In this document: in pieces, positions 2,114-61,782 of the stretch | How the letters are laid out: each line of letters opens with the position of its first letter | How positions within the stretch are numbered: the stretch's first letter is position 1 | Sequence record: NC_070980.1 | Length of the DNA stretch: 64,000 nt | Reading direction: 5' to 3' (one strand) | Source: Escherichia phage vB_EcoP_SU7 | Position numbers and translations under genes: made by a program | Notes under the pieces: generated by a model | What the model was told of the DNA's origin: nothing | Seen by the model: the letters and a program-made list of their open reading frames with translations, nothing else | Databases searched by the model: none

Positions 2114-2332
2114 ATGAAAATGATGAAACAGGTAACTTATGGTCTAGCTTGCTTAGGGACAGGTTTTGTGATTTCCACAGCAGTACCTGTAAATGCAGTA
2201 GGCTCTCATTCTATTATAGAAGCTCCTGTAGAGAAGCTTAGTTCTCAATGTAAACAAAGGACCATTCAAAATAATTTGGTTGTTATTTGCCCAGACGCTC
2301 AATCTTCAGCTCTGAGAAAAATTCTTCCTTAA
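2114..2332 (+). CDS. small exported/membrane protein (possible lysis accessory protein)
   Basis: 72 aa with N-terminal hydrophobic segment; RBS AAAGGAG; sits immediately upstream of the lysozyme. Confidence 0.45.
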   Translation: MKMMKQVTYGLACLGTGFVISTAVPVNAVGSHSIIEAPVEKLSSQCKQRTIQNNLVVICPDAQSSALRKILP

Positions 2333-2365: not shown

Positions 2366-2857
2366 ATGGACGCTATCGCATTGCCGCCTGTACAGATGAG
2401 CCTAAGTCCGGCTGGTATGGAGTTTATCATGAAGCATGAAGGCATGAGAACTAAAGCCTATAAAGACTCCGCTGGAATCTGGACTATATGTGTAGGGGCT
2501 ACGCGCGATATGAATGGGTATCCAGTAAGACAAGGATTAACGTATTCTATAGAGGATTGTCTAGCTCTGCTAGATAGAGACACACAAGACTCTGTTCGTG
2601 CTACTCAGAAAAACATAAGAGTTCCTATGCTAGCTCATGAATTTGATGCTGTCACTTCTTTCAACTTTAATGTTGGTGGTGGTGCTTTGTCAGCTTCAAA
2701 ACTTAGGAAAGTGATCAACGGAGATGTGAAGGGTGATGTTTACTCAGAGTTCTTACGTTGGGATAAGATAACTGTTAAAGGTGTAAAGCAGCGGAGTCCG
2801 GGACTTCACAATCGCAGGGTTGCAGAAGCAAATCTATACACTACAGGAAAATATTAA
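2366..2857 (+). CDS. GH24 lysozyme (T4/lambda R-type muramidase), probable endolysin
   Basis: HEG…AYKD…G.WTICVG catalytic region; RBS AAAGGAGG; 163 aa. Confidence 0.85.
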   Translation: MDAIALPPVQMSLSPAGMEFIMKHEGMRTKAYKDSAGIWTICVGATRDMNGYPVRQGLTYSIEDCLALLDRDTQDSVRATQKNIRVPMLAHEFDAVTSFNFNVGGGALSASKLRKVINGDVKGDVYSEFLRWDKITVKGVKQRSPGLHNRRVAEANLYTTGKY

Positions 2858-8764: not shown

Positions 8765-9562
8765 ATGACAAAAATAATGGGAGTGTCAGAGCTTGACCCT
8801 TTGGTCCAACAAGCTTCTAAGAAATATGGCATTCCTGCTGCTCTTATACATGCAGTGATTCAGAGAGAGTCTAATGGAAGACCTTCTGTTGAATCTGGTA
8901 CAGGACCAGTAGGTTTAATGCAAATCAGTAAGGGGTTGGCTAAAGATTATGGATATAAACTTGAAGATAGGTTAGACCCTGCAAAGAATATTGACATGGG
9001 TGCTAGATATTTAAGAGATAACCTGAAAGCTTTTGATGGTGATGTGAGGAAGGCTTTGGTGGGGTATTCAGAAGGAACTGGTGGTGCTAAGCAAATGTTT
9101 GCTGGTAAGAGAGGGTTTACACCTCAAGCTTTAGATTCAATGAATAATAAGCTGTTCCTACCATTCTTTGATAAGAACACAGCAGCGGCACAAGTGGCTA
9201 ATCCTGTAGGTGCTTTGAAAGCAGTTCAGCCTGTGGACCAGTTTGATTCTAATACGCTGACTAGAGAAGGTGCTGCAAACGCTCCTACTCAAGCAGAGAT
9301 AGCTGCAAGCAAGGCTGGAGCTTTAGGTGGTCGTCCTGTAGAGTTTTACTCTGATGAACAACCTACTGGGGAAAATCAAAAACCTCAACAGAACTTTGGA
9401 AATGCTGTATTGGCAGCTGCTTCTATGCTTGCAGGAAAACAGCCTAACTCTCAAACCGTACAGAGAGCACATGCCCCTACTCAAGCAGGTTCTCGATACA
9501 GTCCACAAACACAAGCCGTGCTGAGACGTTTGTCTAGCATAGGTACTGATATTTACAGATAA
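8765..9562 (+). CDS. virion-associated lytic transglycosylase (SLT domain)
   Basis: IQRESNGRP…GLMQIS…VGYSEGTGG, the SLT catalytic Glu-Ser and GLMQ motifs. Confidence 0.75.
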   Translation: MTKIMGVSELDPLVQQASKKYGIPAALIHAVIQRESNGRPSVESGTGPVGLMQISKGLAKDYGYKLEDRLDPAKNIDMGARYLRDNLKAFDGDVRKALVGYSEGTGGAKQMFAGKRGFTPQALDSMNNKLFLPFFDKNTAAAQVANPVGALKAVQPVDQFDSNTLTREGAANAPTQAEIAASKAGALGGRPVEFYSDEQPTGENQKPQQNFGNAVLAAASMLAGKQPNSQTVQRAHAPTQAGSRYSPQTQAVLRRLSSIGTDIYR

Positions 9563-18028: not shown

Positions 18029-18328
18029 CTAGATTAAATCATAATACTTAATAATATCAGAGAGTTTGAACTCTCGAATGTCGTTCTTGTCGTTGTCCCA
18101 AGCGGTCATTATCCAACAAGGTTTGCCCCCATTATGATAACGGGAAGAAGCAACTGAGGTTCGTAAAGGAATAACGGAGCGGTCTGCAATCTCGCCTCTC
18201 CAATTACGATAGCTAAAGCGAAGAACTTGTTTCGTAGATACTTGATCATGTGTGTTTTCCTTATTCATAGATTCAAAGACTTCCTTCTCTTCAGGAGTCT
18301 CTAGATTTTTTAAATTCGCGTCTTGCAT
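18029..18328 (-). CDS. hypothetical protein
   Basis: ORF on the replication strand; start placed at the internal ATG (MQDANL…); start uncertain. Confidence 0.4.
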   Translation of the reverse strand: MQDANLKNLETPEEKEVFESMNKENTHDQVSTKQVLRFSYRNWRGEIADRSVIPLRTSVASSRYHNGGKPCWIMTAWDNDKNDIREFKLSDIIKYYDLI

Positions 18329-18695
18329 CGTTTTCCTCTTTAGTCTTAATCTTATGGCAAGACTCTTTACATAAGACTTGAAAACCATCTTTCTCAACTA
18401 AAGCCCTCTCGATGATTTCATCCCAAGTAGCTTCATGGTCCACTGGAACAATAGGCTCGATGTGGTCGACAGCCACCTCTTTCAGAGGAGAGTCATTACC
18501 GCACATGGCACACTTGTAGTGCATTGCCAGCTTGCCAGTCTTAGGGTTGATTTTACGTTCTGTCTGAGCTTCTTTGAGAGCATCAAACATAGGCTTCCAC
18601 TTTCTAGTCAGAGAACGAATCCCTGACTTAATGAAGGAGTTATAACGTGCTTCAGTCCACTGACCAGAGCATCTTGTCTTCTCAGCTTTCGCCAT
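18291..18695 (-). CDS. HNH endonuclease
   Basis: CAMCGND…VDHIEPIV…CH, an HNH zinc-finger nuclease motif. Confidence 0.55.
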   Translation of the reverse strand: MAKAEKTRCSGQWTEARYNSFIKSGIRSLTRKWKPMFDALKEAQTERKINPKTGKLAMHYKCAMCGNDSPLKEVAVDHIEPIVPVDHEATWDEIIERALVEKDGFQVLCKESCHKIKTKEENDARREFKKSRDS

Positions 18696-21193: not shown

Positions 21194-21456
21194 TGTATTC
21201 CTCTCTCCTTTAGAGCTTTAAGCAAACCGTTGTGGTTAGCGGCACAGGTTGTATAAGTGTCCTGATACCACTCGAGTGTTGTTGCAAGTGCTACTCCCTG
21301 TCCACTCTGAAGTAAAGGGAGGTCTACATCACATTCAGCTTTTAGGTTTGTTGGTAAGGGCATTAGCTGCCTGCTGTTGTCGCTCGTTGAACAAGCCATC
21401 AAACTAGAAGCGAGAAAAATCACCAAACAACTCTTTTGCTTTTTCTTTGTAAGCAT
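21190..21456 (-). CDS. lipoprotein, candidate outer-membrane spanin
   Basis: Signal peptide with lipobox LMAC; short mature part with Pro and Cys; lies downstream of the candidate inner-membrane spanin. Confidence 0.4.
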   Translation of the reverse strand: MLTKKKQKSCLVIFLASSLMACSTSDNSRQLMPLPTNLKAECDVDLPLLQSGQGVALATTLEWYQDTYTTCAANHNGLLKALKERGIQ

Positions 21457-21790
21457 TTTCTGCACCCTCTTGAGTGCTGTGATAACCAAGCCAAATTACT
21501 TTGTTTTGATATCCGATGCGAGCACTCCATTTGTTAATATCCGACCTGTACCCTACACCTTTTATTCCAGTTAAAGAGTTCTTTTGAACTATTTTGTTGG
21601 CATTATTAAGGACAGGTGTTGCTCTTCTTAGATTGCTCCAAGAATTATTAGATTTGTCTAAATCTTTATGGTCTATTTGAAAATCAGGAATCTCTCCAGT
21701 TTTGATATACCAAGCAATTCTATGAGCTTTGTACTGTTTATATTGATAGGTAATCACTGTATAGCCATCTGTGGCTTTACAACCTGCCAC
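21404..21790 (-). CDS. HNH homing endonuclease with AP2-like DNA-binding domain
   Basis: IDHKDLDKSNNSWSNLR (HNH) and GIKGVGYRSDINKWSARIGY…GYHSTQEGAENAY (AP2-like). Confidence 0.6.
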   Translation of the reverse strand: MAGCKATDGYTVITYQYKQYKAHRIAWYIKTGEIPDFQIDHKDLDKSNNSWSNLRRATPVLNNANKIVQKNSLTGIKGVGYRSDINKWSARIGYQNKVIWLGYHSTQEGAENAYKEKAKELFGDFSRF

Positions 21791-21885: not shown

Positions 21886-22227
21886 CTAATTCTTTAATTT
21901 CAGTGCCTCCGCTGCTTGTTGCTGTCGTTCATTGAAAAGTCCTACATACTCATCACTAGCACACACATTGTAAAAAACTGGCTTAGTCTTTTCATAATGC
22001 ATCTCTTTGTAAATAGTTTCCGTGTTCTTCTTCCAGTTAGATAAACCAGTCAGAACTTTCTGAGCCACTTCATCAGCAGCCTTAGCTCTCTCAACCTCAA
22101 TCTCTTGCTGTTTCTTCTCATGGTCAAGAGCATTACTATTACTTCTGTATTGCTCAAACTTGACACCACCAAAGAAAATAATAGCTGTGAAAATAAGAAA
22201 GCCTATATTGTTTTGAAGCTTTTCCAT
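21886..22227 (-). CDS. type II membrane coiled-coil protein, candidate inner-membrane spanin
   Basis: N-terminal TM (IGFLIFTAIIFFGGV) then charged coiled coil; ATG at 22227. Confidence 0.4.
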   Translation of the reverse strand: MEKLQNNIGFLIFTAIIFFGGVKFEQYRSNSNALDHEKKQQEIEVERAKAADEVAQKVLTGLSNWKKNTETIYKEMHYEKTKPVFYNVCASDEYVGLFNERQQQAAEALKLKN

Positions 22228-22240
22228 TTTAACTCCAACG

Positions 22241-22264
22241 AAAAAAGCCACCCGAAGGTGGCTA
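22241..22264 (-). terminator. rho-independent terminator (minus strand)
   Basis: GCCACC-CGAA-GGTGGC stem with U-run on the minus-strand transcript, after the 22287 gene end. Confidence 0.5.
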
Positions 22265-56111: not shown

Positions 56112-56342
56112 TTAACCATTGATATGAGTTACTTGAACATCAGGTACAGGGATAACTTCATGGTCTTCCTGTAATTGGAACAGTGTCCCCTGACTAAGAC
56201 CAACCACACGATGCATATCGTTAAGGCTAGTGTCTGTCTTTAGGTAGACATTTTCAGAGTTAGTTGGTAAACGGAACACATCGCCCGGACGTAACTCACT
56301 GAGCTTTTTAGTAACAACTACAGAGAAGAGATTAATTTTCAT
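56112..56342 (-). CDS. small protein, early paralog family
   Basis: LSELRPGDVF…HRVVGLSQGTLFQLQEDHEVIPVP. Confidence 0.5.
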   Translation of the reverse strand: MKINLFSVVVTKKLSELRPGDVFRLPTNSENVYLKTDTSLNDMHRVVGLSQGTLFQLQEDHEVIPVPDVQVTHING

Positions 56343-56515
56343 TTGATTAACACCAAATCAGTACGACGTTCGAAGGAAGGAGAAGATTCACCATTCCACT
56401 GAACAAGATAACAGAGAACACCATCAATCGTTGTTCTCCGACGAATAACACCTGTTTGAGTACCGCCAACAAGGCGAACAGTGTTACCAGTGGTAAACTT
56501 AACCTTTGAGCGCAT
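56339..56515 (-). CDS. small hypothetical protein
   Basis: Start set at ATG 56515 with upstream AGGAAACAGAGG. Confidence 0.4.
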   Translation of the reverse strand: MRSKVKFTTGNTVRLVGGTQTGVIRRRTTIDGVLCYLVQWNGESSPSFERRTDLVLIK

Positions 56516-56804
56516 CCTCTGTTTCCTCATTCTGGCGTTTAATTTCTTCAGTGAGTTGCTTGTTGAGATCTTGAATACGTTTAATCTCCCAACCCAAAGA
56601 AGCCAAACGATCATTACGTGCTTCAATTTGCTCCTGCATCTTGAGCAGTTTGGAACGAACATCAGCATTAAAGACTTCCTCTTGCTTAAGAAGGAACTCA
56701 TAACGACGCTTCCAGCTTGCTGACTTATTACTTAACGCAATAAATCCTAGAACAGAAATCGTTACAGTGAGTACGAGAAGGAATCTATAAACCTCTAAAG
56801 TCAT
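56499..56804 (-). CDS. membrane-anchored coiled-coil protein
   Basis: N-terminal TM (FLLVLTVTISVLGFIAL) then charged coiled coil. Confidence 0.45.
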   Translation of the reverse strand: MTLEVYRFLLVLTVTISVLGFIALSNKSASWKRRYEFLLKQEEVFNADVRSKLLKMQEQIEARNDRLASLGWEIKRIQDLNKQLTEEIKRQNEETEDALKG

Positions 56805-57005
56805 ATCTTTATCCTCTTAAAGTAAGATATTATAAGAAATGTTATTTAGAATTTATTATTTCTAAACTTAATTTCTATCAATAATTTTCAGAGGTCTATA
56901 TACAGTCATTACCTCTGGTCCCAAATCACTTCCACTTTTTGCAGAGAAAATCATAAGTGTGTGATTTATAAGGAAATTTAGTTTGTCAATCTTGGCACCT
57001 ATGAA

Positions 57006-57392
57006 TCAATCACGGGCACTATTATTGAACACTAAATCACCACAATACATTGGATTGGTATACCACTTTGGCACCCCTTCGCTCTTACTCTGAAAGTATG
57101 TACCGCTGTATAAAGGCACATAACCTCTCTTCAGTGCACGTCTCGCAAGCTCCTCGCTCTCTCTGATTGCTTTCTTTATCAGAGGATTATCATCACGAAT
57201 TAGCTTTACATAACGCTTAAAAGGTTTCTCCTTCTTTAGTAGGACGGGTATCCACTCGAACTGGTTTCGTTGGTTTATAACCTGCTCGGCAGTCAGTTTT
57301 CGTTGTGACATTCTGTTTATTACGGTATCCGCTACTAATGCTTTGCAAGCGGTTGGCTGATTCCCTGCCTCATAATAAATAGTCAATGTCAA
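57006..57392 (-). CDS. cell-wall hydrolase, SleB-like
   Basis: …IYYEAGNQPTACKALVADTVINRM…NQFEW… matches the SleB-type pattern. Confidence 0.55.
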   Translation of the reverse strand: MTLTIYYEAGNQPTACKALVADTVINRMSQRKLTAEQVINQRNQFEWIPVLLKKEKPFKRYVKLIRDDNPLIKKAIRESEELARRALKRGYVPLYSGTYFQSKSEGVPKWYTNPMYCGDLVFNNSARD

Positions 57393-57443
57393 AAGTAGCT
57401 GTGCTGTCGTTATCAGAACTTACTACCCCCTGTTTTACGGGCA

Positions 57444-57471
57444 TAAAAAAGCCCCATCCGAAGACGGGGCG
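57444..57471 (-). terminator. rho-independent terminator (minus strand)
   Basis: GCCCC-ATCCGAAGAC-GGGGC hairpin with U-run on the minus transcript. Confidence 0.5.
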
Positions 57472-57706
57472 ACCTGAAAAGTGAACATGACCTCACTCAT
57501 TTAAAAATCCTCGCAAAGACTCTTAAAAAGCGGCCTCGTTAAAGGCCCGGTCAAATGACCATCCAATAGGGATTGAACCATGCCAATGATTCACAAAGGG
57601 AGTTCCCTTTAGGCATCACTAGCTACGCAAAAAGCCGCACAGAGGCGGCAGACAAAAGACGCTCAAGAAGAGCGTCATAGTAGTTGACCACTGGTACAGA
57701 AGGGGC

Positions 57707-58150
57707 TTACTTAACTCTTGCTGTTTTGATTGGGTCAATATATTTTTCAACTCCCCACTTATGTTTACTGTCAGCGTAGAAAACATCAGGTGCACATTGA
57801 CTAGTAGTAGGAAATGCTTTCGGTGGCTTAGTGCTACCTTTATTCTTCTGCTTACCTTTAGTGCGACCGTTACAAAAGATTTCTAAACGTTTTTCTTGTT
57901 CTGTTTTCGCCGCCCCGTTGGTTAACAAGGAACGCTTGTGATCAGCAAGAAGAAGCGCATCAGCACGATGAACACGACGACCTAGCACCTTTGGTACAGG
58001 TGATTCTTTATGTGCTTGAGCGGCCTGTTTCATAGCTCTTCGTTTAAGGCTACGTTTGCTAATATGACTAACAGCGGCTGGCTTTTCTTTTTCCAGCTCA
58101 CTCATAGAGAACACTCGTCCGCCTTTCATGCTGATTTTAGATTTAGCCAT
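57707..58150 (-). CDS. basic hypothetical protein
   Basis: 147 aa, Lys/Arg-rich. Confidence 0.45.
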   Translation of the reverse strand: MAKSKISMKGGRVFSMSELEKEKPAAVSHISKRSLKRRAMKQAAQAHKESPVPKVLGRRVHRADALLLADHKRSLLTNGAAKTEQEKRLEIFCNGRTKGKQKNKGSTKPPKAFPTTSQCAPDVFYADSKHKWGVEKYIDPIKTARVK

Positions 58151-58220
58151 TGCTTTATTCCTTTCGCTGATAAATTATATCGTGCAAGCCTTACCACACA
58201 GCAAGGCTTAACCAAATAAC

Positions 58221-58430
58221 TTAATCAATTAAACTAAATGATTTCCAACTACGTGTAATTGCTACACGTTCGCCATCAAAGAGAACACTTACGGAGATTA
58301 GCTTACCGCAGCGACTTGATACCGTGGTAATACGTCCAGTTAATGCCTTACCTTTATTCAGGTAGTGGTAGCGAACACGACGCCCTAACAGTCGAGTCGC
58401 TTTCTTCTCTAACGTGCTTAAACTAGTCAT
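58221..58430 (-). CDS. small hypothetical protein
   Basis: 69-aa ORF. Confidence 0.4.
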   Translation of the reverse strand: MTSLSTLEKKATRLLGRRVRYHYLNKGKALTGRITTVSSRCGKLISVSVLFDGERVAITRSWKSFSLID

Positions 58431-59893: not shown

Positions 59894-60703
59894 CTTTCAA
59901 TTGTAAGGGCGCTATTGCCCCGCTCTCTATGAGCTTTTTAAGTCACTATTAACTTAACTATAAACGCTCACTACTAAACGCTTATAGGTAAGTGGGGCGG
60001 TCTTATCAGGAGTTAACCTTGCCGCCCCCTTATCCGTGATGTTTCATCTGGTATCTTTAATTAGTCGCTATAAACGAAGCCGACCTGATAGCGATGATCA
60101 ATCATCACAATAAGGCAGTGCGTCCGACACTATTTAATTACTTTATCGTAACCGTCGGCAATATCGTCTACTTTGCTTTCGCTCCCGCCTATCCTTTTGT
60201 ACTAACTCTCAATCGCTAACCATCGCCCACTACGGGAGGTTATTGCGAAAGAGTCATTAGCCGTCTAATACATTGACGTTTTATATCTTTCAGCAGGTTT
60301 ACTACATAAACTGATTATGTACGCCATCAATAGTGGCCTCAAATCATTCACATCGTAAACGTTCACACTAAACCTTATTGTTAAATAGCAATTTGCCACT
60401 TTTTAACCACTCCCCGCCGCTCGCAATTGAGCGTTAATTCTTCGGACTTGTCTACCCTGATTAACTTCTTTCACTGTAGCGCCTTGTTAGCGATGACCGC
60501 CGCTACCCTTAACCGTGGGCGATTAGCTTAAGTCTTTGCGTGCACTCAATGAATCCGTCTATCAGTGGTGACGTTTCCAGTAAGGGATTGTAAGATTGTT
60601 TTCTCTGATAGTTTAGAGAATCTCACACCGTTTTATCTGGTATGCTTTCCGATGGTTATTATCATCAAGCATATTCAACCGATATAGGAGAATGTTTAAA
60701 TTA

Positions 60704-61489
60704 TTAAAGAGCGGTAAATCTATCAGTGTGCTTTCTCACACTATGCAACTGTTAGCCGTTGTTACGCTTTTCTTAAGCGGTGATTTGCTTAAGTGATGTG
60801 CTCATTATGAATCATGCTGTTTTAGCTGTCAACCACTTTTTTAAATCTTTTCTCATCTATTCTTTCGAATGACTAGTTAATCACGCATTGGATTAACAAG
60901 ATTGTAAGCGGTTGCGCTTAACTTTCTGATTCATATTTTTAAAGAGCGGTGTTTCTTACTGCTTAGTGAACATTCTAACAGAACGTTTCACCTTGTCAAC
61001 TCTTTTTATCGTCTTCTTTTTATTCTCTTCCCTTATCTCGCGTGAATCTTTGCGAAAGGGCAAGACGATAAATTGTTAAAGAGCGGGGCACTAAGTGCCG
61101 GATGTTTTATGTCATCACTGACCGTGTGAACATCTTATCATAATGATTCGATGTGTCAACAACTATTTTTCGATTAATGCATCTTGATAAACTAGCGACC
61201 GTTAAGGCCGCTAACCTTACCTTAGTTCATACGTTTAAAGGTTAAATCTTTATCCGTACTTACCAGCGATAACACCGCAATAGCTTTGCCTTTATCGGCA
61301 TCGGCTACCATCTCTTTTGCCTGCTGTAATGTACTACCGACTATTCTCATAATCATGTTAGTAACGTTAATGCTAGTGCAAGTGATTTGCGTGTCTTTGC
61401 TTGAGAAGGTATACACGTTCATTGATAAATCCTCATTATGGCATGGTTGGGAGTTTATCAAGATACACTAATCGAATTATTAAAGAGCA
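60704..61489. repeat. array of four TTAAAGAGC(G/A)(G/A) motifs, each followed by a short hairpin
   Basis: TTAAAGAGCGG at 60704, 60949 and 61076; TTAAAGAGCAA at 61479; each preceded by AT-rich sequence; lies within and just past an ORF-free region. Confidence 0.5.
61222..61461 (-). CDS. small hypothetical protein
   Basis: 79-aa ORF. Confidence 0.35.
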   Translation of the reverse strand: MINSQPCHNEDLSMNVYTFSSKDTQITCTSINVTNMIMRIVGSTLQQAKEMVADADKGKAIAVLSLVSTDKDLTFKRMN

Positions 61490-61782
61490 AGGCTAAACAT
61501 CTAGCCTATCAGGAGGTAACTTACTGCATCACGTCCTGACAAGATTCAATATACACTATCCTAAAACCGTTGCAAGCCTTTTTCTAAAAATAATTTCACT
61601 TTCTTTTGTGTACAGAGGAACGCGCACACGAATAACATCAAGGGAGGAAGAAAACAAGCCTTATAATCGAAAATAAGGCATACAGGAGGTGTTCTAACGA
61701 GCTAAACAAGGGCAAGATGTGCAATCACCTTAGAAATGAAAAAAGCGCCTCAAAAGGGCGCTTAGAAAGTCTTACGGATTGG

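Follow-up and report, generated by a model that had tools for sequence, protein, structure and literature searches.

Several groups of virulent phages encode a classical endolysin near their structural or holin genes and a SleB-like hydrolase in the replication/regulatory module, as described for BME3 and PVP-SE1 (PMC12210895) and for Salmonella phages in which the endolysin gene next to the holin encodes an M15 peptidase (PMC11180984). The kuravirus literature names a holin–GH24 pair as the lysis genes (PMC9965538, PMC4281155), and the leftward arm, which carries a SleB-like gene, is classed as early in publications on phiEco32 and SU10 (PMC4281155; PMC8948821). Mass spectrometry of SU10 particle preparations detected 34 proteins, the SLT homologue gp20 included; 17 late proteins were detected, and both gp15 (GH24) and gp116 (SleB-like) were absent from the 34 (PMC4281155). 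The SU10 proteins gp20–24 are ejection proteins that leave the capsid upon genome release; among them, gp20 has been proposed to be the transglycosylase that degrades the wall at entry (PMC9509320). Our literature searches found no experiment on the SleB-like gene of any Gordonclarkvirinae member, no experimental test of the SleB-like proteins of BME3, PVP-SE1, the Salmonella phages, GAP31 or Goslar, and no publication in which a phage lysin of the SleB type was shown to be active.

We analyzed a 64,000-nt stretch of phage DNA (the window), the gene order of which matches that of the well-annotated phage Paul. A rightward late operon encodes the packaging, head, tail, holin, endolysin and ejection proteins, and a long leftward arm comprises the middle and early genes. 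The SleB-like ORF was flagged in a mechanical ORF list at 57006..57392 on the minus strand, with a TTG start, a TGA stop and a 128-aa product. It had been placed among early minus-strand genes, which agrees with the published classification of the leftward arm (PMC4281155, PMC8948821). The counterparts of this gene are locus phi32_117 in phiEco32, gp116 in SU10 and gp123 in Paul.

The product of the ORF matches Pfam PF07486 Hydrolase_2 (E=4.3e-7) with a score of 30.9 bits, above the gathering score of 27, and the orthologue from phage 7-11 reaches 61.7 bits against the same family. The 55 homologues collected were combined into a profile, which aligned along the entire domain with the two SleB catalytic domains of known structure, 4F55 (E=5.4e-16) and 4FET (E=2e-15). 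The best PHROG of the product is 12974 (2.4e-82), to which no function is assigned, and an endolysin PHROG is its weaker second match. An AlphaFold2 model was obtained with a pLDDT of 91 and a pTM of 0.87, and a Foldseek search of the PDB with this model returned 4FET and 4F55 as the sole matches with a meaningful probability (1.00; TM 0.58-0.65, rmsd 4.1-4.7 Å), the runner-up having an E-value of 3.7 and a probability of 0.04. We interpret the moderate TM scores as a result of an extra helical insert at about residues 55-75, which is a difference from Bacillus SleB and forms the block of the model with the lowest pLDDT (76). Dozens of phage models named SleB cell wall hydrolase also matched in a Foldseek viral library. 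In summary, the Pfam, profile and structural searches bore out the original prediction of a SleB-like cell-wall hydrolase at this position.

The catalytic domain begins at residue 1 (in the 136-aa numbering introduced below) and makes up a single-domain protein, in which the Pfam search detected no second domain. We ruled out SleB proper, the two-domain cortex-lytic enzyme, as the N-terminal peptidoglycan-binding domain and the signal peptide are absent and the protein has only 136 aa. The family is very large, with 17,900 cluster representatives matching the profile at E<=1e-10, and most of its members carry an N-terminal extension of 20-90 residues; in the aligned bacterial homologues this extension corresponds to a membrane anchor or signal, and the phage form has no counterpart to it. 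A PADLOC search with the SleB-like gene and its two neighbors returned no defense or anti-defense match. Taken together, the sequence profiles and the structural model identify the locus as encoding a genuine single-domain SleB/CwlJ (Hydrolase_2) enzyme, a predicted lytic transglycosylase.

Alignment places the predicted catalytic residue at Glu16 (Glu8 in the 128-aa numbering), encoded by a GAG codon at 57369..57371 on the minus strand. This residue belongs to the motif IYYEAG, is the sole invariant acidic residue across the 55 homologues, sits at the end of helix 1 in the AlphaFold2 model and is aligned by profile with the first Glu of YGESRGE in SleB 4F55 and 4FET. Chain arithmetic makes the latter Glu157 of the B. 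cereus enzyme and Glu151 of the B. anthracis enzyme, reportedly the catalytic residues of SleB (Li 2012; Jing 2012). Later papers describe one catalytic glutamate as essential in SleB-type enzymes (including PMC11148199). The remaining family invariants, A17, R35, V46 and Q52, are also present in the phage protein. Alignment of the catalytic residues had been set beforehand as one test of the claim of a hydrolase; run here, it recovered the glutamate and the other invariants, and the claim survives.

We found no signal peptide, membrane anchor or SAR domain in the SleB-like protein, which has neither a charged n-region nor a hydrophobic core. The highest 19-residue Kyte-Doolittle hydropathy is 0.81, at the N-terminus and well under the level of a membrane helix; the corresponding value for the 7-11 orthologue is 1.21. 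A SAR endolysin was considered and rejected: such enzymes have a weakly hydrophobic N-terminal transmembrane segment of ~18-22 residues, usually following a positively charged N-terminus, whereas only ~15 uncharged residues precede the catalytic Glu here, the hydropathy reaches only 0.81 and an N-terminal positive charge is lacking. The N-terminal stretch also folds as helix 1 of the catalytic domain in the model, which argues against a SAR domain. With no signal, anchor or SAR domain, the protein is expected to stay in the cytoplasm until the membrane is breached. Hydropathy thus describes a soluble enzyme without secretion signal, as expected of an endolysin, whereas the late expression and the linkage to holin and spanin that also characterize endolysins are not seen, the holin gene being ~55 kb away on the other strand and the SleB-like gene lying in the early arm behind four predicted terminators.

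Each of the 97 kuravirus-like records with a match to the region contains the gene, at 81-98% amino-acid identity. The window comes from a phiEco32-like kuravirus: the 3 kb around the gene share 92-98% identity with the complete genomes of E. coli podophages of the phiEco32 type (PAS59, Bas87, EK010, E20-1 and others), which belong to the genus Kuravirus and close relatives within the Gordonclarkvirinae. Pairwise dN/dS within kuraviruses is 0.04-0.14 at dS up to ~1, no frameshift or stop interrupts the gene in the 17 genomes read, and each of the 14 full-length orthologues extracted from a CTG start measures exactly 408 nt. These sequence comparisons indicate a real, strongly conserved gene under purifying selection and not a chance ORF. 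7-11, GAP52 and Proteus, Cronobacter and Aeromonas C3-type podophages carry distant copies with 31-36% identity in their leftward arms; the label 'endolysin' on the copies in 7-11, GAP52 and related phages is an annotation by similarity alone. In the genomes compared, the SleB-like gene is a core gene of the phiEco32-like podophages (Gordonclarkvirinae), common to the relatives 7-11 and GAP52.

The flagged ORF is probably 24 nt short at its 5′ end, and our alignments point to the CTG at 57416 as the start. The proposed full coding region, 57006..57416 on the minus strand, has 136 codons, from the CUG at 57416-57414 to the TGA stop at 57008-57006. This CTG, present in all 17 kuravirus and Nieuwekanaalvirus genomes, aligns with the TTG start of four syntenic relatives found in public assemblies (63-71% identity), which is located eight codons upstream of the flagged TTG and 4-5 nt after the sequence AGGAGGT. 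A Shine-Dalgarno-like GGGGGT occupies 57425..57430 on the minus strand, at a distance of 8 nt from the downstream CTG and of 32 nt from the TTG; it is kept at the same place in all kuraviruses read, as GGAGGT in phiEco32, Paul and SU10. An in-frame stop lies two codons upstream of the CTG in the 17 genomes. No ribosome-binding site was found for the TTG at 57392 or for the phiEco32-type ATG one codon upstream of it, and the Paul annotation leaves the SleB-like gene alone in its neighborhood without an annotated ribosome-binding site.

The eight extra codons encode (L)ITTAQL(L/M) in kuraviruses and MLTTAALL in the four relatives. Differences among kuraviruses are limited to synonymous third positions in codons 2-7 and to a conservative Met/Leu exchange (ATG/CTT) in codon 8. 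Residues 1-10 of the 136-aa form contribute the first turns of helix 1 in the AlphaFold2 model, with a block pLDDT of 93. Because initiation at CUG is rare in E. coli, at ~1% or less of the efficiency of AUG, we infer rather than assign initiation at CUG 57416 or, less likely, at the adjacent AUA; a TTG or ATG start at 57392, devoid of a Shine-Dalgarno sequence, is a possible alternative. Initiation at CUG would imply weak translation. Comparison of the start regions suggests that a weak start signal is common to all lineages read: kuraviruses have CUG and the Logan relatives UUG, and the AUG of 7-11 and GAP52 follows a long spacer. We also considered a leader ORF or programmed frameshift from an ATG in a terminator T-run (57441), which we rejected since the ORF is not conserved: a 1-nt insertion breaks it in Bas87, ECBP2 and Bas88, and the ATG is lost in 4E8 and EP335.

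GenBank records assign the gene lengths of 306 nt (EP335), 333 nt (O18-011), 387 nt (PAS59 and 4E8), 390 nt (phiEco32, Paul, SU10, XT18, Bas91, Bas93 and FS2B) and 411 nt (Bas87 and Bas88, annotated with a start of the CTG 57416 type). With five lengths in use, most public records of the gene probably begin at the wrong codon. The disagreement in start calls, from 306 to 411 nt, and the CTG start of all kuraviruses, where relatives have TTG, could also be read as marks of a relic decaying after acquisition of the holin–GH24 cassette, the loss of a start codon being the first step of pseudogenization. The low dN/dS at dS up to ~1 within kuraviruses, the lack of any frameshift or stop in the 17 genomes, the purely synonymous N-terminal codon changes and the conserved Shine-Dalgarno sequence all speak against such decay, and we regard it as very improbable.

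The DNA upstream of the gene is structured. The region 57380-57710, which spans the 314 nt separating the flagged TTG from the upstream early gene (57707-58150, 147 aa), folds with a z-score of −4.06 relative to shuffled sequences, and a 2-kb scan identified 6 terminator-like sites where 1.3 were expected, four of them upstream of the SleB-like gene and on its strand. The original prediction had described a structured intergenic region following the gene; the structure is real, but it is positioned upstream in the direction of transcription and follows the gene only in plus-strand coordinates. Three terminator-like hairpins on the minus strand, at 57658..57676 (directly past the stop of the 147-aa gene), 57634..57649 and 57532..57547, were identified by the terminator scan and folding. 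The fourth site, listed at 57451-57470 among the hairpins and at 57443..57470 as a full element on the minus strand, 27 nt upstream of the CTG, has the features of an intrinsic terminator, GCCCCGTC-TTCG-GATGGGGC followed by TTTTTT, and its counterpart is annotated as a terminator in Paul and 4E8. Kuraviruses, the Logan relatives and 7-11 all have a hairpin and T-run at this position. Changes on both sides preserve six of the seven pairs of the stem, and the stem shows a T-A to G-C change between kuravirus subgroups. We conclude that four clustered, predicted intrinsic terminators make up the structured intergenic region.

Searches for known RNA families yielded none in the intergenic regions, the only hit at gathering score being a tRNA-Arg elsewhere, and at a relaxed threshold a single chance-level match to anti-hemB (E=0.52). 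A simple scan of 56300-58300 detected no sigma-70 consensus promoter. Likewise, no gp36-type promoter motif TAATGTATA was found near the SleB-like gene; the motif occurs 22 times in the window compared with 18 expected, that is, at chance level. Downstream of the gene, an AT-rich spacer of ~200 nt (56805..57005, minus strand) contains TATAAT at 56829-56834 and is a probable site for the promoter that serves the next early operon; a predicted promoter is annotated at the homologous place in 4E8. Given the terminators upstream and the AT-rich spacer with its likely promoter downstream, the SleB-like gene presumably stands alone between two early transcription units and is reached only via terminator read-through. 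Beyond the spacer, 56499-56804 encodes a membrane-anchored coiled-coil protein with a transmembrane segment, and such a gene follows the SleB-like gene in kuraviruses and Logan relatives alike. This neighbor is mislabeled 'DNA helicase' in several records and might be relevant to the SleB-like enzyme.

The late operon of the window accounts for the other peptidoglycan-cleaving enzymes. A 72-aa holin with one transmembrane segment (2114-2332, plus strand; annotated holin in Paul) is followed 33 nt downstream by a GH24 endolysin (2366-2857, plus strand; PF00959, E=1e-30; annotated endolysin in Paul). An SLT-domain ejection protein, that is, an internal virion protein, is encoded at 8765-9562 on the plus strand (PF01464, E=1.6e-24) and an Rz-like spanin at 21886-22251. 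Both the GH24 and the SLT domain are present by Pfam, in agreement with the description of the SleB-like domain as a third one in this phage. The GH24 gene adjoins the holin gene in the late operon, and its product is therefore the canonical endolysin; the SLT protein corresponds to a published ejection protein and therefore serves entry. Entry is thus served by the SLT protein and exit by GH24, and the SleB-like enzyme is an extra and not the entry enzyme. The suggestion that the phage uses separate hydrolases for entry and exit holds in that it has both, but the pair is SLT and GH24, and the SleB-like protein is left unexplained by it.

These data bear on two rival explanations. The first, raised by the original prediction, holds that the SleB-like protein is the main, true endolysin and that GH24 has another role, for example a virion-associated one. 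It draws on the endolysin labels carried by the homologues in 7-11, GAP52 and Proteus and Cronobacter phages, labels which were assigned by similarity alone. We consider it highly unlikely, as GH24 directly follows the holin in the late operon, the SU10 GH24 protein was not detected in particles in which 17 late proteins were (PMC4281155), 7-11 has a second candidate endolysin, the M15 peptidase, and the SleB-like gene combines a weak start with terminators ahead of it. The second explanation, that the SleB-like protein is a virion-associated entry enzyme, would fit the frequent occurrence of wall-degrading enzymes in phage particles. It is scarcely credible in the light of the published SU10 data, in which gp116 is not among the 34 particle proteins (PMC4281155) and the ejection set consists of gp20-24 (PMC9509320); moreover, the gene lies outside the late structural operon and the entry role is already filled by the SLT protein.

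Our leading explanation, to which we give an even chance, is that the SleB-like protein is an auxiliary endolysin that is expressed weakly, stays in the cytoplasm and is set free by the holin. Translation from the conserved CUG at 57416, with its well-spaced Shine-Dalgarno sequence, would yield the 136-aa protein, and small amounts of the enzyme would be made by read-through of early transcripts, its output being kept low by the terminators and the weak start codon. The enzyme would accumulate harmlessly in the cytoplasm until the late holin (2114-2332) permeabilizes the inner membrane, whereupon it could reach the murein and act beside the GH24 lysozyme as an auxiliary endolysin. There it would probably also cut the MurNAc-GlcNAc bond targeted by GH24, non-hydrolytically, and leave a 1,6-anhydroMurNAc end.

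Against an auxiliary endolysin, a lysis enzyme is expected under late control, whereas the SleB-like gene lies in the early arm, ~55 kb off, and has features that suppress expression, namely the terminators and the weak start. SleB proper prefers a muramic-δ-lactam cortex, and this preferred substrate is absent from E. coli, which has no such cortex. The gene is also kept behind a terminator while the canonical endolysin varies among relatives; retention of the SleB-like gene with a variable partner fits a non-redundant role better than a mere back-up. In favor of the auxiliary endolysin, the SleB-fold protein T6EC3 kills E. coli from the periplasm in a Glu-dependent manner (PMC11148199), the orthologues of 7-11, GAP52 and related phages carry an endolysin annotation, and a two-lysin layout exists in BME3 and PVP-SE1 (PMC12210895) and in Salmonella phages (PMC11180984).

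A non-lytic or non-redundant role, in which trace levels of the enzyme act before lysis, is unlikely in our judgment. The protein might attach to or cut peptidoglycan precursors or recycling muropeptides in the cytoplasm, disturb the wall synthesis or division of the host during takeover, or be a partner of the 56499-56804 protein. Such a role would accommodate the position of the gene in the early arm, behind terminators in kuraviruses, Logan relatives and 7-11, and the weak start signal of every lineage read (CUG, UUG, or AUG with a long spacer). It would also suit retention of the gene across two phage families that differ in the second endolysin (GH24 in kuraviruses, an M15 peptidase in 7-11) and the recurrence of the coiled-coil gene with its transmembrane segment as the next gene in kuraviruses and Logan relatives. 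However, lytic transglycosylases need polymerized glycan strands, which are absent in the cytoplasm, the protein has no export signal, and we found no precedent in the literature searched. The 56499-56804 gene is, in addition, not obviously co-expressed with the SleB-like gene, as the ~200-nt spacer with its likely promoter intervenes.

A sharper proposal, which we rate as quite unlikely, is that the SleB-like protein is an early factor that has a conserved function of its own and whose dosage the four terminators and the CUG start keep low. If true, it would explain why the SleB-like gene holds a matching place in the non-structural arm across two phage families in which the holin-linked endolysin differs, and it could extend to many virulent phages with a SleB-type hydrolase among their replication genes.

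The domain assignment is already public, since GenBank lists Paul gp123 and the XT18 protein as 'cell wall hydrolase' and the SU10 entry in UniProt bears the name 'Cell wall hydrolase SleB domain-containing protein'. The SleB-like finding is therefore known as annotation and ordinary in kind; as annotation it carries little weight, and earlier work on several phage groups has noted the combination of a classical endolysin with a SleB-like hydrolase encoded far away. What our comparisons add is the probable CUG start with its 136-aa product, the predicted terminator cluster with covariation, the homology with the 7-11-group 'endolysins' and the difference in partner endolysin between lineages. 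In many virulent enterobacterial phages, a SleB-type enzyme that has no signal is retained outside the lysis cassette. The kuravirus gene, which has a weak start and follows tandem terminators, offers a clean and genetically tractable case for asking if such an enzyme backs up the main lysin or serves another purpose. With its small size (15 kDa) and positive charge, the predicted lytic transglycosylase may also interest enzybiotic screens.

Compared with the Bacillus SleB/CwlJ enzymes (4F55, 4FET), the phage protein shares the catalytic domain by profile and fold, with the Glu ending helix 1, and it is single-domain like CwlJ. Unlike Bacillus SleB, to which it is 18-19% identical, it has neither an N-terminal peptidoglycan-binding domain nor a signal peptide, and the phage host is Gram-negative, with no cortex muramic-lactam. 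As in BME3, PVP-SE1, Salmonella M15C phages, GAP31 and Goslar, the SleB-type hydrolase is encoded far off among non-structural genes, although these phages belong to other lineages and their proteins are usually longer (150-210 aa).

The closest counterparts outside the kuravirus group are 7-11 gp111, GAP52 gp23 and related Grimontviridae 'endolysins', homologues of 141 aa with 31-36% identity that share the hydrophobic N-terminal helix. The 7-11 and GAP52 copies occupy a matching place in the leftward non-structural arm, with an annotated terminator just upstream in 7-11; unlike the kuravirus gene they start with AUG, and the partner endolysin of 7-11 is the M15 peptidase and not GH24. We looked for a lysis cassette around the 7-11 and GAP52 orthologues and rejected it, as there is no holin-like neighbor: the small downstream ORFs have no transmembrane segments except for an N-terminal signal-like stretch in GAP52 gp25.

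The type VI secretion effector T6EC3 resembles the phage protein in its SleB-fold domain and homologous Glu. It is toxic to E. coli in the periplasm and depends on this Glu, as seen with the mutant E108Q (PMC11148199), and the SleB fold can therefore attack Gram-negative murein. Unlike the phage protein, T6EC3 is delivered by a secretion system and is paired with an immunity protein. A precedent for early transcription of a lysis enzyme is the lysozyme gene e of phage T4, which is reportedly unlinked to the holin and transcribed early, its output being held down post-transcription until late (McPheeters et al. 1986). The mechanism is said to be a hairpin that hides the ribosome-binding site in early transcripts, whereas the throttles suggested by sequence for the SleB-like gene would be the upstream terminators and the CUG start.

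The public records of the SleB-like gene, which encodes a SleB/CwlJ-family cell-wall hydrolase (57006-57392, minus strand), use five different start codons, across 57392-57416 (minus strand) of the window and the homologous loci of related genomes (L001-L053), and give annotated CDS lengths of 306, 333, 387, 390 and 411 nt. The CTG start favoured by the comparative evidence is used only by Bas87 and Bas88 among these records.

The terminator-rich spacer located 5' of the SleB-like gene is, as judged from sequence comparison, an insertion/deletion hot spot. At the corresponding position, phiEco32 carries an additional 798-nt gene annotated as a 'tail protein' (phi32_119; L005, 590-1387) and FS2B a 330-nt gene annotated as an 'agglutinating adhesin' (L052, 58-387). 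Only the last terminator-like hairpin (T4, 57443-57470) and the ribosome-binding site are retained in this spacer.

Elsewhere in the window, approximately 1.9 kb without any ORF of at least 90 aa (59894-61782) separates two leftward gene blocks, and three tandem sigma-70 early promoters have been reported in the homologous spacer of SU10. The leftward arm opens, directly past the convergent terminators, with a small ORF (18029-18397, minus strand) that matches the WYL domain (PF13280, E=1e-5). An HNH-AP2 homing-endonuclease-like ORF (21404-21790, minus strand; PF13392, E=6e-14) adjoins the Rz-like spanin gene and is probably a mobile insertion that varies among kuraviruses. Pharokka-style records (L001, L049, L050 and others) list several tiny early ORFs under implausible names, with products of 30-100 aa termed 'tail protein', 'terminase', 'polymerase' or 'DNA helicase', which look like annotation artefacts.

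The second 'endolysin' of Salmonella phage 7-11, gp50 (L046, 39019-39411, minus strand), is a Peptidase_M15_4 protein, and the canonical endolysin, a GH24 lysozyme in the window (2366-2857), is therefore not the same in the two phage groups; unlike it, the SleB-like gene is common to both.

The gene following the SleB-like gene (56499-56804, minus strand) encodes a 101-aa product, named 'DNA helicase' in several automated records, for which Pfam and PADLOC returned no match. The protein has a single TM helix at its N-terminus and ends in a charged coiled-coil tail, and in divergent relatives the SleB-like gene is likewise followed by a protein of the same architecture (for example, L039, 6620-6904). 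Since the positive residues come after the TM helix, the predicted topology is probably N-out/C-in, which would distinguish this protein from a spanin.
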